Assembly: GCA_963664225.1 (NCBI GenBank) | Contig: OY760937.1 | Location: forward strand, 2,912,001-2,976,000 | Direction of reading: 5' to 3' | DNA: 64,000 nt | Source of the DNA: Verrucomicrobiia bacterium | GTDB lineage: Bacteria; Verrucomicrobiota; Verrucomicrobiia; Limisphaerales; UBA1319 | In this document: positions 51,828 through 54,756 of the stretch, in pieces | Layout of the letters: each line of letters opens with the position of its first letter | How positions within the stretch are numbered: the first letter of the stretch is position 1 | Made by a program: the position numbers and the translations under genes | The notes under the pieces: generated by a model | Database searches by the model: none | Told to the model about the DNA's origin: nothing | The model's input: the letters and a program-made list of their open reading frames with translations, nothing else

Positions 51828-52538
51828 ATGAAGGGTAAAGATGAACATTCGGACAACAGCAAAGTATCCATGGCCCAGATTGAAGGATCGCTTGAATCAG
51901 CGGCCCGTTTCACGCGTGGAGGCGCTCCGGCAGCTCCAGACCATGATGCCACTGAGCGCGAGCGCTTTGCTCGAATTGAAGCGGAACGGCCACGACTCAT
52001 CCAATGGGCCAAAGCCAACGGCAAACTAGGCGGCACGATTCCTCCCGAAGATTCCAGAGGCGGTGAGCACCGCGTCTTTTATTGCAAAAAAACCGACCGG
52101 TATCTCAAGTCCACCATTCCCGAAAAACACAAAGGCTTCGGCATCGCACTGGGATCCCACACTCACGGGGCAACCCCTTCTGAGTATCTGGACCGGTTGG
52201 CCCTCCAAAATAAAATCTTCAACGACGATATCCGCCTTGAGTGGGTGGTAGTCAAAGAGGGCATGCCAGTTATCATTACTTCTCAACCTTTCATTTCAGG
52301 ATCACACCCGTCTCAAGAACACATTGACGAAATGATGATCGAGCACGGTTTTGAAAAAATTATTGCCGGGGCGTTTTACGATCGAGATGAGGGTTTATTG
52401 GTGTTTGACCTGTTTCCGAAAAATGCAAAAACGAATGCCGCAGGGGTGATCTGTCCATTCGATCCGGTTGTGCAACGCATTACGTCCGAATTTGCAGAAT
52501 TCTTGCGCGATTTTCCTGACCGTATTCATGACCGGTGA
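51828..52538 (+). CDS. polyvalent-protein-type Ser/Thr kinase-like domain protein
   Basis: GGEHRV, YLDRL.LQN.IF.DD, ITSQPFI, DL.PKN, PFDP pattern. Confidence 0.65.
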   Translation: MKGKDEHSDNSKVSMAQIEGSLESAARFTRGGAPAAPDHDATERERFARIEAERPRLIQWAKANGKLGGTIPPEDSRGGEHRVFYCKKTDRYLKSTIPEKHKGFGIALGSHTHGATPSEYLDRLALQNKIFNDDIRLEWVVVKEGMPVIITSQPFISGSHPSQEHIDEMMIEHGFEKIIAGAFYDRDEGLLVFDLFPKNAKTNAAGVICPFDPVVQRITSEFAEFLRDFPDRIHDR

Positions 52539-52656
52539 TGTAAGAGGTCGCAGATACTGCCTGTGTTATTTCGTCCTTGGCCAATCACGACCTCCCAATG
52601 CGGATTCTTCCGCGTGGAAAAGTCATTTGTTCCGCACCCCTGATACGGTTTCCACA

Positions 52657-52940
52657 GGTAATCATCCGTTGGCGAGGAGAGCCCCGGGAAGCTCCCCGCA
52701 GCTAACGGTGAATAACTGTGCCGCCGCCAAAAAATCGAGCGGTGAAAAACTTTTGTCGCCGGAGTATAATGCTTCTGGCGGCATCGCCCCGGATGGATCA
52801 CGGTCATACACCCCTTGTCTTAAGAAGACTGAGGAGAGTTTACCGGCCCGTCCGACGGCGCCTGTCAAAAAGTCTGAGAGAACTATTGCCCGCGAGGCTT
52901 CCTGTATCAGGTTGACTGACGACAGCGCTCCGATGCCCCG
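52657..52940 (+). ncRNA. predicted IS110 bridge/seek RNA (5' end uncertain: about 52657 or about 52777)
   Basis: two large internal loops closed by stems and enclosed by ggcatcg/cgatgcc; loop strands match both element junctions. Confidence 0.75.
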
Positions 52941-52953
52941 TAACGGAGGATCT

Positions 52954-54204
52954 ATGAAATCATGGTTGGAGATATCCTGTTTTGCCGGATTGGATTGGGC
53001 CCGGGATCATCACGATGTGGTCATCGTCGATCGAGAGGGCAAGATCGTGGAACAGTTCCGCTTCGAGCATTCCCAGGAGGGCTGGGAGCAATGGCGGAAA
53101 AAGACGGCGCCCTTCGCCCCTTTGGCGGTGGCCATTGAGACGAGCTTCGGCACGGCTGTGGACCAGCTCCTGAGGGGGGAGGCAACGGTCTATCCGGTCA
53201 ATCCCAAGAGCGCCCAGCGGTATCGGGATCGCAAGGTGCCCAGCGGCAGCAAGACCGATTTTCTGGATGCCTGGTCTCTGGCCGATGCCTTGCGGATCGA
53301 CGGGCACGGTTGGAAAGCGCTGGTCCCAACGGACGCGCTGACCAGCCAGTTGCAGATGCTCTGCCGGGATGAGGTTCATCTCATCGGTCAGCGCACGCTG
53401 TTCGTAAATCAATTGCAACAAGCTCTCTTGGAATACTATCCGGCGGCCCTGGAGGCCTTTGAGGATTGGACCATGGCCTCGGCGTGGGATTTCATCATTG
53501 AGTTTCCAACGCCTCGTGCGCTGGTCAAAGCCGGCAAGCGACGGTGGGAAAAGTTCCTGCACGTTCATAAGCTCTGGCGGCCGGAAACCGCTGAAAAACG
53601 GATGGGCATTTTTGCACGGGCCGATCAGTTTTGCGGCTCGGCGGCCCTGACGGCGGCCAAGGGCACCCTGGCGGTGAGCCTGGCCAAAATGTTACGCACG
53701 TTGCAGCAGCAACTGGATGTTTATCACGCGCAAATCCAGGCCTTGTTTGCACAGCACCCCGACCATGACTTGTTCGGTTCGCTGCCCGGAGCGGGCTCGT
53801 TTTTGGCTCCACGGCTGCTGGGAGAAATCGGCGGCGGGTCGGGCCGGTTTGAAAGCGCACAGCATCTGCAGGGCATTGCGGGCACGGCTCCTGTGAGTTA
53901 TCAATCGGGACAAATCGACAAGGTCCGCATCCGCCACCACTGCGACAAGTTCCTCCGCCATGCCGTGCATCTGTGGAGCGATTGCAGTCGCAAGAAATGT
54001 CTTTGGGCACAGGTTTACTACCAGAAAAAACGGGAAGAGGGCAAAAGCCACGCTTGCGCTTTGCGGTGTCTGGGCCAGCGGTGGCTCAAAATCATCTGGA
54101 AAATGCTCCAAACCCACGCGCCCTACGATCCGGAAATACATGCCAAAAACCAGCAGCTGCATGGTTCGTGGGTGCTGAGTCTGCAGACCAAAACCGCCAG
54201 GTAA
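52954..54204 (+). CDS. IS110 family transposase/recombinase
   Basis: RuvC-like DEDD (GLDWA, AIETS, KTDFLDA), C-terminal GTAPVSYQSG serine; RBS GGAGGA at 52945-52950. Confidence 0.95.
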   Translation: MKSWLEISCFAGLDWARDHHDVVIVDREGKIVEQFRFEHSQEGWEQWRKKTAPFAPLAVAIETSFGTAVDQLLRGEATVYPVNPKSAQRYRDRKVPSGSKTDFLDAWSLADALRIDGHGWKALVPTDALTSQLQMLCRDEVHLIGQRTLFVNQLQQALLEYYPAALEAFEDWTMASAWDFIIEFPTPRALVKAGKRRWEKFLHVHKLWRPETAEKRMGIFARADQFCGSAALTAAKGTLAVSLAKMLRTLQQQLDVYHAQIQALFAQHPDHDLFGSLPGAGSFLAPRLLGEIGGGSGRFESAQHLQGIAGTAPVSYQSGQIDKVRIRHHCDKFLRHAVHLWSDCSRKKCLWAQVYYQKKREEGKSHACALRCLGQRWLKIIWKMLQTHAPYDPEIHAKNQQLHGSWVLSLQTKTAR

Positions 54205-54265
54205 TTTTGGTGAATAACTTTTATGAAAAACCATTTTACAACACAGAGAACAACTCGCCTTGCCC

Positions 54266-54637
54266 CTATTGGACGGCGTGGCGGTGTCGAACGCTTCTGA
54301 CCAATTCGAAAATGAGGCTCACGATGCCCACAACCCAGCCAATGGGATAAGGAAGGATCAGCATTCCCCACCACATGGAGTGTTTGCTCGCCCCGCCAAG
54401 TCCCCCCCACGCGCTCAGTCCGAAAAGCGCGCCGACCCCGACCGCGATCATCAGGAAAATGCACAACCATTGAACGCGCAGGTCGCGTCCGCTGTTGCCC
54501 AGGTAAATGCCGAGAGCCACCAGGCCGCTGCCGGGAAGGATGACGAGAGAGCCCTCCAGCGGATCGACGGCGCCAATCAACATGGCGATACCACCGACAA
54601 TGACGAGAATTCGGGACCAGAGCTTGCGTGTATTCAT
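54266..54637 (-). CDS. small four-TM membrane hypothetical protein
   Basis: four hydrophobic segments, DPLEGS motif. Confidence 0.7.
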   Translation of the reverse strand: MNTRKLWSRILVIVGGIAMLIGAVDPLEGSLVILPGSGLVALGIYLGNSGRDLRVQWLCIFLMIAVGVGALFGLSAWGGLGGASKHSMWWGMLILPYPIGWVVGIVSLIFELVRSVRHRHAVQ

Positions 54638-54756
54638 GGAGTAAAGGCCGCCTGCGGCAGGATCAATTGAACTTGCACACTCCTTAAGTTGGTGATGCGC
54701 TTAATATAGTGTATAGAATCTATTATGTCAATAATAATAACATGCATAATAAATCC

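Follow-up and report, generated by a model that had tools for sequence, protein, structure and literature searches.

Structure and guide correspondence of a very probable bridge RNA in the left end of an IS110-group insertion sequence from a Verrucomicrobiia bacterium

We analyzed a window of 64,000 nucleotides from a Verrucomicrobiia bacterium (GenBank assembly GCA_963664225.1, contig OY760937.1, positions 2,912,001 to 2,976,000 of the forward strand), for which an earlier note, made from the letters alone, had read the region 52640-52940 as an IS110 bridge RNA with legible guide segments. It is highly probable that this region encodes a bridge RNA and belongs, as its left end, to an intact IS110-group insertion sequence (IS) located at 52642-54255. 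The ends of the element, its genomic copies, the RNA structure as seen from covariation and a family-wide correspondence between guides and DNA are established here. Positions are those of the window unless genome positions are named, and all features lie on the plus strand unless stated otherwise.

The genome (5.78 Mb, one contig) contains four copies of the element, the window copy included. Alignment of their junctions yielded a common block of 1614 bp, GATAC...AACAACT, between differing flanks, whereby a CT dinucleotide is found directly left of the shared block and also as its last two bases in all four copies. With one CT counted, the insertion sequence comprises a left end of 312 nt or 104 codons (52642-52953), the recombinase gene and a right end of 51 nt (54205-54255), and the two copies of the CT core lie at 52640-52641 and 54254-54255. 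The four copies with exactly the same ends and CT on both sides confirm the ends that the earlier note had inferred, and its description of the element as intact is consistent with the sequence. Compared with the window copy, one of the other copies is identical, one has 1 difference and one has 9, with none of the differences falling within 52775-52940. The flanks of two copies that lie at the edge of a palindromic repeat were joined in a script and matched uninterrupted members of the repeat family across the join, in one case with 86% identity over 133 nt and a single CT at genome position 445656, in the other at 797195, where TTGAACCCCT-CTCCTC was read, again with a single CT. These uninterrupted sites, which read ..CCCCT-CTCC.. 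with one CT, are paralogous and not orthologous empty sites.

The recombinase gene (52954-54204, ATG to TAA) encodes a protein of 416 aa and is preceded by a GGAGG ribosome-binding site at 52945-52949, as read from the sequence. The protein matches the Pfam families DEDD_Tnp_IS110 (PF01548; 4e-30, full length 1-155 of 155) and Transposase_20 (PF02371; 6.5e-14). Its motifs GLD (D14), AIE (E62), KTDFLDA (D102 and D105) and YQSGQ (S318, followed by G319) correspond in the alignment to the catalytic motifs of ISCro4 and IS621, whereby YQSGQ is aligned to YESGS of ISCro4; roles for the DEDD and Ser residues are given by Hiraizumi 2024 (PMC11208158). ISCro4 and IS621 are the only solved relatives that were matched, with E-values of about 2e-06, and are thus remote.

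The structure of the RNA was assessed with homologues from a scan of species-representative genomes, which gave 36 loci with recombinases that are 30-68% identical. We used 28 of these loci and left out the N-terminally cut matches L018, L025, L026, L032 and L039 as well as L038, L041 and L042 (30-34% identity). The upstream regions of the 28 loci align well, and after dropping the near-duplicates L021 and L033, the covariation set consisted of 27 sequences, namely the window and 26 loci. The core of the bridge RNA (52775-52940) comprises a closing stem, a target arm and a donor arm. The closing stem that the earlier note had described is present in the sequence (ggcatcg at 52780-52786 and cgatgcc at 52931-52937), and the minimum-energy fold of 52775-52942 reproduces this stem and the two arms. 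Among the 40 pairs of the seven named helices, 78.8% of the cells were paired compared to 64.5% after shuffling, and slid controls of the helix test reached 34-49%. Changes on both sides were seen for 31 of the 40 pairs, and none of 500 shuffles reached any of the five measures. The hairpin inside the target loop (GTCTT AAG AAGAC, 52817-52829, helix 4) has four compensatory pairs out of five and 87% of its cells paired; for the hairpin inside the donor loop (GCC CGCGA GGC, 52888-52898, helix 7) these values are three out of four and 90%. The covariation supports the two-loop structure, and a covariance model of homologous left ends, as the earlier note had proposed, was built on this alignment. 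In the genome this model, R1, found exactly the four copies (154.8 bits each, E 4.7e-32), and it had matches in 5 of 40 relatives. L046 and L059 represent the same locus as L008 and are not independent.

In order to compare guides and DNA, the junctions of each element were located from the conserved ends, and its guides were scored against its own flanks and against those of all other elements. For the left target, registers 0 and +1 were admitted for self and non-self comparisons alike, as eight elements have a loop that is one base longer. The near-duplicates L015, L021 and L033 were dropped from the flank test of the genome set. The left target guide, TACACCC plus CT, is located at 52807-52815. 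Over its 7 nt, 21 genome elements matched their own flank with a mean of 6.05 compared to 2.62 for the flanks of others, and scores of at least 6 were obtained in 16 of the 21 own comparisons but in only 3 of 420 non-self comparisons. The right target guide AGGAGAG (52832-52838) is the reverse complement of CT plus CTCCT. Here, the match rate is 1.0 at both core positions, 0.95-0.8 at positions +1 to +5 and 0.05 at position +6, and over the 5 nt the own mean of 20 genome elements is 4.30 compared to 1.59 for others. None of 20,000 permutations reached the observed sums (for the left-target score, and for the right target in its 7-nt form). A second set was drawn from metagenomes and comprised 80 loci, of which 68 were processable, with 54 distinct guide pairs, 51 of them new. 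In this set the means are 5.46 (own) and 2.88 (others) for the left target in 39 elements and 4.47 and 1.56 for the right target in 45 elements, and none of 10,000 permutations reached the observed sums. Among the held-out matches of the model, three of four had a findable left junction, and their left flanks fitted the guide at 7/7, 7/7 and 5/7 positions.

The homologue alignment shows that both strands of loop 1 are hypervariable, and that both strands of loop 2 are nearly invariant. For the window copy, the matches that the earlier note had listed were all found again: TACACCCCT (52807-52815) agrees with CGCACCCCT (52633-52641) at 7 of 9 positions, GAGGAGAGTT (52831-52840) is the reverse complement of AACTCGCCTT (54252-54261) at 8 of 10, AGAGAAC at 52877-52883 recurs at 54245-54251, and GTATCAGG (52904-52911) is the exact reverse complement of CCTGATAC (52639-52646). 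The lengths of the guides had to be revised in part. The right target guide had been read as ten bases, of which CT plus five bases hold, but the tenth base, with its match rate of 0.05, is not part of the guide. The optimum predicted at that time, ACACCC-CT-CTCCT, agrees with the guide lengths derived from the family. It had also been stated that both left guides end in CT; this holds for the target guide, but in the donor guide the CT is coincidental, as the family register sets AGAGAACUAUU facing AGAGAACAACT, with a match at the last core base in only 0.15 of the elements.

In the donor loop, the left donor guide AGAGAACTATT (52877-52887) corresponds to the left donor half AGAGAACAA at 54245-54253, which was placed by the junction alignment and the family register. 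Its part AGAGAAC matches the right end at rates of 0.95-1.0 and includes G/T covariation, and the rates for its last four bases, which run up to the core and include it, are 0.7, 0.35, 0.6 and 0.15. The right donor guide GTATCAG (52904-52910) is the reverse complement of CT plus GATAC and matches at a rate of 1.0 at all 7 positions; it covaries with the end, as in ATATCAG with CTGATAT and GTACCAG with CTGGTAC (changes in L013, L023 and L019). The earlier suggestion that the bases next to the core in both right guides fit the partner after exchange, as handshake positions would, is borne out by the family. The handshake guide TT of the target loop (52839-52840), which pairs with AA at 54252-54253 of the donor, is in agreement at 34 of 40 positions in 20 elements, whereby TT guides occur with AA ends and AT guides with AT ends. 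The handshake guide of the donor loop is the single G at 52911, which pairs with the last left-target base C at 52639; it fits in 17 of 21 elements, and the next base fits at a rate of 0.05. In sum, loop 1 tracks the own flanks and loop 2 tracks the element ends with covarying changes, which agrees with the target-loop/donor-loop logic around a CT core that had been assumed for this RNA.

Following the example of IS621, recombination would proceed as follows. The 5' strand of the target loop, TACACCC plus CU, reads like the top strand to the left of the insertion and would pair with the bottom strand, and the 3' strand, AGGAGAG, would pair with its complement CT plus CTCCT right of the insertion point. 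In the donor loop, AGAGAAC.. has the sequence of the right end of the element, and GUAUCAG would pair with its complement CT plus GATAC at the left end. As handshake guides, UU after the right target guide fits the last donor bases and G after the right donor guide the last target base. A tetramer of the 416-aa DEDD/Ser recombinase would then hold the excised circle and the target on one RNA, and strands would be exchanged at the CT core. That the element is transcribed and active in recombination we infer, and its reprogrammability is an extrapolation from IS621.

Several observations weigh against the assignment as a bridge RNA. The fold of 52775-52942 has a z-score of only -1.9, with 12 of 200 shuffles folding as well (the whole left end reaches -3.3), and the closing stem is the weakest helix with 63% of its cells paired. 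An Rfam 15 search of 52300-54600 at E-values up to 10 yielded no family and only two chance-level snoRNA matches (E 2.4 and 8.1), and none of the 23 listed runs was an RNA run covering the stretch. Some elements fit poorly, namely L035 (3/7) for the left target and L030 and L036 (2/5) for the right target in the genome set, and L063 and L112 (1/7 for the left target) and L088 (3/7 and 2/5) in the metagenome set. The handshake class with TT and AA forms one subclade and may go back to a single event, so that few independent events are available. Furthermore, the search for further copies and empty sites that the earlier note had proposed succeeded only for the copies and the paralogous single-CT sites: an orthologous empty site of the window copy was not found in 40 relatives, where only the right-flank gene was matched with 68-76% identity, and contigs of 4 runs showed no joints, empty site or circle junction across 52200-54700. 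These contigs break at 52635-52637 and 54256-54260, as is expected of a repeat.

As an alternative, the left end could serve the transposase gene as a structured 5' untranslated region (UTR) or promoter region of the ordinary kind, have no guide function and match the flanks by chance. The unremarkable single-sequence fold of the core, the lack of an Rfam match and of a listed RNA run would fit this explanation, as would the left end of ISPpu9, which has been described as a translation-inhibiting 5' UTR (PMC12288879). Comparative data from sequences already contradict it, since in each of the two independent sets the loop-1 strands follow the flanks of their own element (0 of 20,000 and 0 of 10,000 permutations) and the loop-2 strands covary with the ends, so that we consider it barely conceivable. 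Very improbable, too, is the idea that the left end does no more than encode the N-terminal part of a longer transposase and that the bridge RNA is a misreading of coding sequence. Two findings described below speak for such a coding part: the phase is conserved, and the transposase frame is almost free of stops. Coding constraint would not yield 31 of 40 pairs that change on both sides and yet stay paired, and the guide strands are hypervariable and match flanking DNA. In addition, most homologues have their residue 1 aligned with the GGAGG site and the ATG at 52954, and the first 60 nt of the left end, in which the phase is already kept, hold no conserved in-frame start. It is the covariation among homologues together with the matching of guides to flanks, rather than the single copy, that lifts the RNA and its guides above chance and argues for a bridge RNA.

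The guides explain the four sites that the element occupies in its own genome only partly, since these sites are imperfect and better ones are unoccupied, and the hairpin of the adjacent repeat may contribute. The guide-encoded optimum is TACACCC-CT-CTCCT. In the window copy, the left target half CGCACCC (52633-52639) matches at 5 of 7 positions and the right target half CGCCT (54256-54260) at 4 of 5. The values for the left and right half are 5/7 and 3/5 in L002, 5/7 and 4/5 in L003, and 4/7 and 5/5 in L004. Overall, 9, 8, 9 and 9 of the 12 non-core guide positions are matched, only ACCC-CT-C is common to all four sites, and better matches such as GAACCCCTCTCCTC at genome position 797214 are unoccupied, which counts against a choice of target by the guides. 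L003 and L004 lie at the 5' edge of a palindromic repeat family, and the other two copies do not lie in that repeat. It might be that targets are chosen largely by sequence and structure, through the repeat-borne hairpin beside the site, and that the guides contribute only the ACCC-CT-C core. The placement of two of the four copies at the edge of the repeat (CCTCTCCCCG..CGGGGCGAGG), the restriction of the common sequence to ACCCCTC and the unoccupied better matches would agree with this, and a sequence-plus-structure rule has been reported in a preprint for ISPpu10. We nevertheless regard this as rather unlikely, given that the other two copies lie outside the repeat and that all 7 + 5 guide positions track the flanks across the family. 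The repeat palindrome, CCTCTCCCCG(C/T)TCGTGCC..GGGGCGAG(G/A)GG, occurs in dozens of copies in the genome, with sites around 445656, 797195, 3303140-3303207, 3529540-3531141 and 3899451, and the placement at its edge resembles that of IS110 elements at repetitive extragenic palindromic (REP) sequences in other bacteria.

A further feature concerns the left end as a reading frame. According to the list of open reading frames (ORFs), the frame of the recombinase is open through the whole left end of the window element, and the same holds for most of the homologous elements. For 21 genome elements, the left ends contain 8, 96 and 46 stops in frames 0, 1 and 2, respectively, and 17 of them have none in frame 0, the recombinase frame; for 40 metagenome elements the numbers are 5, 172 and 90, with 38 elements free of frame-0 stops. 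For the 17 open left ends, the number expected to be open after mononucleotide shuffling is 0.65. The open frames of ten other IS110-family matches in this genome measure just 285-345 codons, which indicates that base composition is not the cause of the open left end. The length of the left end is a multiple of 3 in 19 of 21 genome and 39 of 40 metagenome elements, the latter over 18 distinct lengths. Phase is kept by the three variable segments in 60, 58 and 61 of 62 elements, with 7, 13 and 13 in-phase lengths, and one-base losses in the donor arm (L017, L029, L031 and L034) are offset by one base further on. The phase is held from the first 60-90 nt of the left end onwards, and in this part no ATG, GTG or TTG is conserved in frame.

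A start codon is found in the right end instead. In the window element, an ATG at 54223-54225 lies 11 codons before the junction and is in phase with the left end and the recombinase. Among the right ends of the genome set, an in-frame ATG 9-16 codons before the junction occurs in 14 of 20 (TTG in 3, none in 3), and among those of the metagenome set in 40 of 48 (only GTG or TTG in 7, none in 1). For 16 genome elements both ends could be compared: frame 0 is free of stops in all 11 with a right-end ATG, and the 2 without a start each carry a stop. GGAG-like sites precede the right-end start in 15 of 49 elements compared to 1 of 49 for a control window, and are concentrated in the ATG-14 and TTG-15 subclades. 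The metagenome contig L078 has a right-end-like sequence immediately followed by a left end, and AAGGAG-N4-GTG is located nine codons ahead of their junction. L101 was also considered as a junction of right and left end and was rejected, as only 6 bases match.

Based on these sequence comparisons, we lean slightly towards the view that in this clade the DNA of the bridge RNA doubles as coding sequence, with a frame that would run from the right-end ATG across the junction of right and left end into the recombinase. Joining of the ends, in a circle or in tandem, would create a longer frame, which in the window element would count 11 + 104 + 416 = 531 codons and would exist in full only in the excised circle or in tandem copies. 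The added N-terminal extension would be basic and consist of Ser, Pro, Ala, Gly and Thr to about one half, as the peptides encoded by the left ends carry a net charge of +5 to +16 and have such a composition. Some points do not fit easily with this frame. The candidate junction promoter described below would start transcription downstream of the right-end ATG, and a sigma-70-like scan of 52500-54400 revealed no promoter for this ATG. The subclade of the window element lacks GGAG before the right-end ATG, and in the most diverged copy of the genome the left-end frame is interrupted by a TAG at the position that corresponds to 52699.

It could also be that the frame serves the translation of integrated copies, through a non-canonical start in the left end or read-through from the flank, and that the joined ends are irrelevant. 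The frame does extend into the flank by 1 to 289 codons in 17 elements, and integrated copies must make recombinase in order to excise (Hiraizumi 2026). The flanks differ between elements, though, and their open runs look random; the phase is kept from a point in the first 60-90 nt of the left end onwards, a part with no conserved in-frame start codon, and the right end holds a start codon at a fixed distance. Together with the distribution in the 16 genome elements, in which stop-free left ends go with the right-end ATG (11 of 11) and both startless elements carry a stop, this makes translation of integrated copies an improbable explanation, and a frame completed by joined ends is preferred. 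In the papers that we searched, neither a left end kept in the recombinase frame nor a right-end start codon nor a frame across joined ends was described. Partridge and Hall are said to have noted in 2003 a frame reaching the end of IS4321/IS5075. Term searches in the texts of Durrant 2024, Siddiquee 2024, the CazIS110 preprint and the ISPpu9 paper retrieved no in-frame left end.

Bridge RNAs of IS110 elements with their loops, core and handshake guides are established (Durrant 2024, PMC11208160; Hiraizumi 2024, PMC11208158; Hiraizumi 2026; Siddiquee 2024, PMC11187229), and a bridge RNA has been predicted in 85.7% of the catalogued IS110-group elements (Durrant 2024, PMC11208160). The element described here is one more member of this established kind and agrees with the family in its domains, ends, CT core, RNA loops, guides and handshake positions. 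It resembles IS621 of E. coli in its recombinase with DEDD and Tnp domains, the long non-coding end upstream of the gene and the CT core. The two RNAs share two internal loops, in which the left guide occupies the 5' strand in top-strand sense and the right guide the complementary 3' strand, a variable target loop and a conserved donor loop, handshake guides 3' of the right guides and a 5' stem-loop, and both elements have a -35-like box in the right end. In both, the left donor guide falls short of the last core base, as in IS621 it stops one base before the core end (PMC11208158). The relationship is remote (E 2.4e-06), with a chain of 328 residues in IS621 compared to 416 aa here. In contrast to IS621, the left end here has 312 nt, of which 68 form a 5' hairpin, and also contains a spacer; a closing stem surrounds both arms. 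The right target guide consists of the core and five bases, the left donor guide reaches 9 bases from the core, only one handshake base of the donor loop is supported, and the left end includes a promoter-like site. In addition, this end is kept open in the frame of the recombinase, a feature that term searches in the IS621 papers did not return.

The best match among solved structures is ISCro4/IS622 (PDB 9t56; Perry 2025 preprint), in which the KTD..DA and SG motifs align; it differs in its chain of 341 residues, and the E-value is only 2e-06. The seekRNA elements ISEc21 (IS110 type) and ISEc11 (IS1111 type; PMC11187229) follow the same principle of an RNA from a non-coding region that matches both target strands, and in ISEc21 the RNA region is likewise upstream of tnp. 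Membership in the IS1111 group was considered for the present element and rejected, as the RNA lies upstream of the gene and the right end has only 51 nt. In members of that group, tnp is followed by the end with the guide RNA, and the subterminal inverted repeats measure 7-17 bp according to Durrant 2024, or 11-13 bp in the IS1111-type elements of the seekRNA work; neither trait was seen here. By reading, long terminal or subterminal inverted repeats are lacking, since GATACGGTTTCC and CAGAGAACAACT at the two termini do not form such a pair (no search aimed at repeats was made). In CazIS110-1 (10.1101/2025.10.25.684509), the catalytic Ser is residue 312 compared to S318 here, a likeness of residue position only, which points to a similarly long recombinase. 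ISPpu9 and ISPpu10 from Pseudomonas putida (PMC12288879; ISPpu10 preprint) are IS110-family elements that insert into repetitive extragenic palindromes, comparable to the two copies at the palindromic-repeat edge. The left end of ISPpu9 differs from the one described here in that it has been described as an untranslated leader that inhibits translation and is controlled by antisense RNAs (PMC12288879). The junction promoter Pjunc of circular IS intermediates (PMC12288879, PMC11208160) is a further case of expression that needs joined ends; there a promoter is assembled from two ends, whereas here a reading frame would be assembled instead.

As a bridge RNA, the present case adds to a family in which thousands are already predicted, and its value lies in a fully mapped natural system far from the IS621 lineage, with guides, core, handshake, ends and targets assigned. 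By analogy, it might be tried as a candidate programmable recombinase. The phase-locked left end is the part that specialists would not expect. If it is indeed translated, ribosomes would read the DNA that specifies a guide RNA, and the frame would be complete only upon joining of the ends, which would make it a translational counterpart of a junction promoter. This would yield a circle-specific recombinase with a basic tail rich in Ser, Pro, Ala, Gly and Thr, or at least a circle-specific translational drive into the gene, and the element might thereby be biased towards insertion after excision. It would bear on how IS110 elements separate excision from insertion, and on how constraints of RNA structure, guides and coding are met by one sequence. 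For tool builders, the "non-coding" end of such orthologues may be needed for the protein.

Besides the core, the left end contains a 5' hairpin and a promoter-like site, neither of which was part of the earlier account of this end. The hairpin (52653-52720, 68 nt) appears in the minimum-energy fold, 11 of its 15 consensus pairs are compensatory in 21 sequences, and it is the positional counterpart of the 5' stem-loop in known bridge RNAs. Its 3' strand includes the 11-mer GGTGAATAACT (52707-52717), a motif conserved in homologues, which recurs in the right end at 54209-54219, 3 nt ahead of the right-end ATG. In an RNA across the joined ends, either copy of GGTGAATAACT could pair with GGTAATCA at 52657-52664, and this duplication suggests alternative RNA structures. 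The site GTGAAA-17-TATAAT (52742-52770) matches the sigma-70 consensus at 10 of 12 positions, lies just upstream of the bridge RNA core and is the only sigma-70-like site in 52500-54400; its -10-like box is found in the closest homologues only. A further candidate promoter would exist at joined ends only. In computed junctions of right and left ends, the best sigma-70-like match falls at one conserved place in 12 of 16 elements with a score of only 7-9 out of 12, whereby the -35 lies in the right end and TAC(C/G)GT at bases 3-8 of the left end. In the window element, TTTACA (54235-54240) would be the putative -35, with TTGAAA, TTGCAA or TTGACA at the same place in homologues, and TACGGT (52644-52649) the presumed -10. 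A weak terminator-like hairpin with 7 pairs, 3 of them G-C, covers the stop codon of the recombinase gene (54195-54212).

The window copy is placed between two convergent genes and interrupts none of the listed ORFs. A terminator-like hairpin lies upstream of it at 52549-52565, and 10 nt separate its right junction from the end of a minus-strand ORF of 123 aa (54266-54637) with a hydrophobic-looking translation. The ten other IS110-family matches of the genome mentioned above are DEDD domains that fall into at least four score groups (e.g. at 1738672, 771347, 2332758 and 3172571); they represent other IS110-type elements, which the model R1 does not match. A solo left-end fragment (L005, 5568848-5569005) is 87% identical to 52637-52793 and ends where the bridge RNA core starts, and two weaker left-end starts occur at 3260801-3260889 (L006) and 901131-901169 (L007). 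Fragments like L005 are also present in the relatives G005, G006, G019 and G028. The closest relative outside the genome is the metagenome element L063, with a recombinase that is 92% identical and different loop-1 guides. Its right flank fits the guide at 5/5 positions and its left flank at 1/7, and to judge from the sequence, one side may be rearranged. In the sequencing runs X4 and X5, loose contig ends were found at 52952/52953, 52639 and 54256. Some of these contigs contain the left end (52636-52952) followed by unlike sequence, others have the element ends adjoining other flanks, and they may represent either element variants or additional sites of insertion in related samples.

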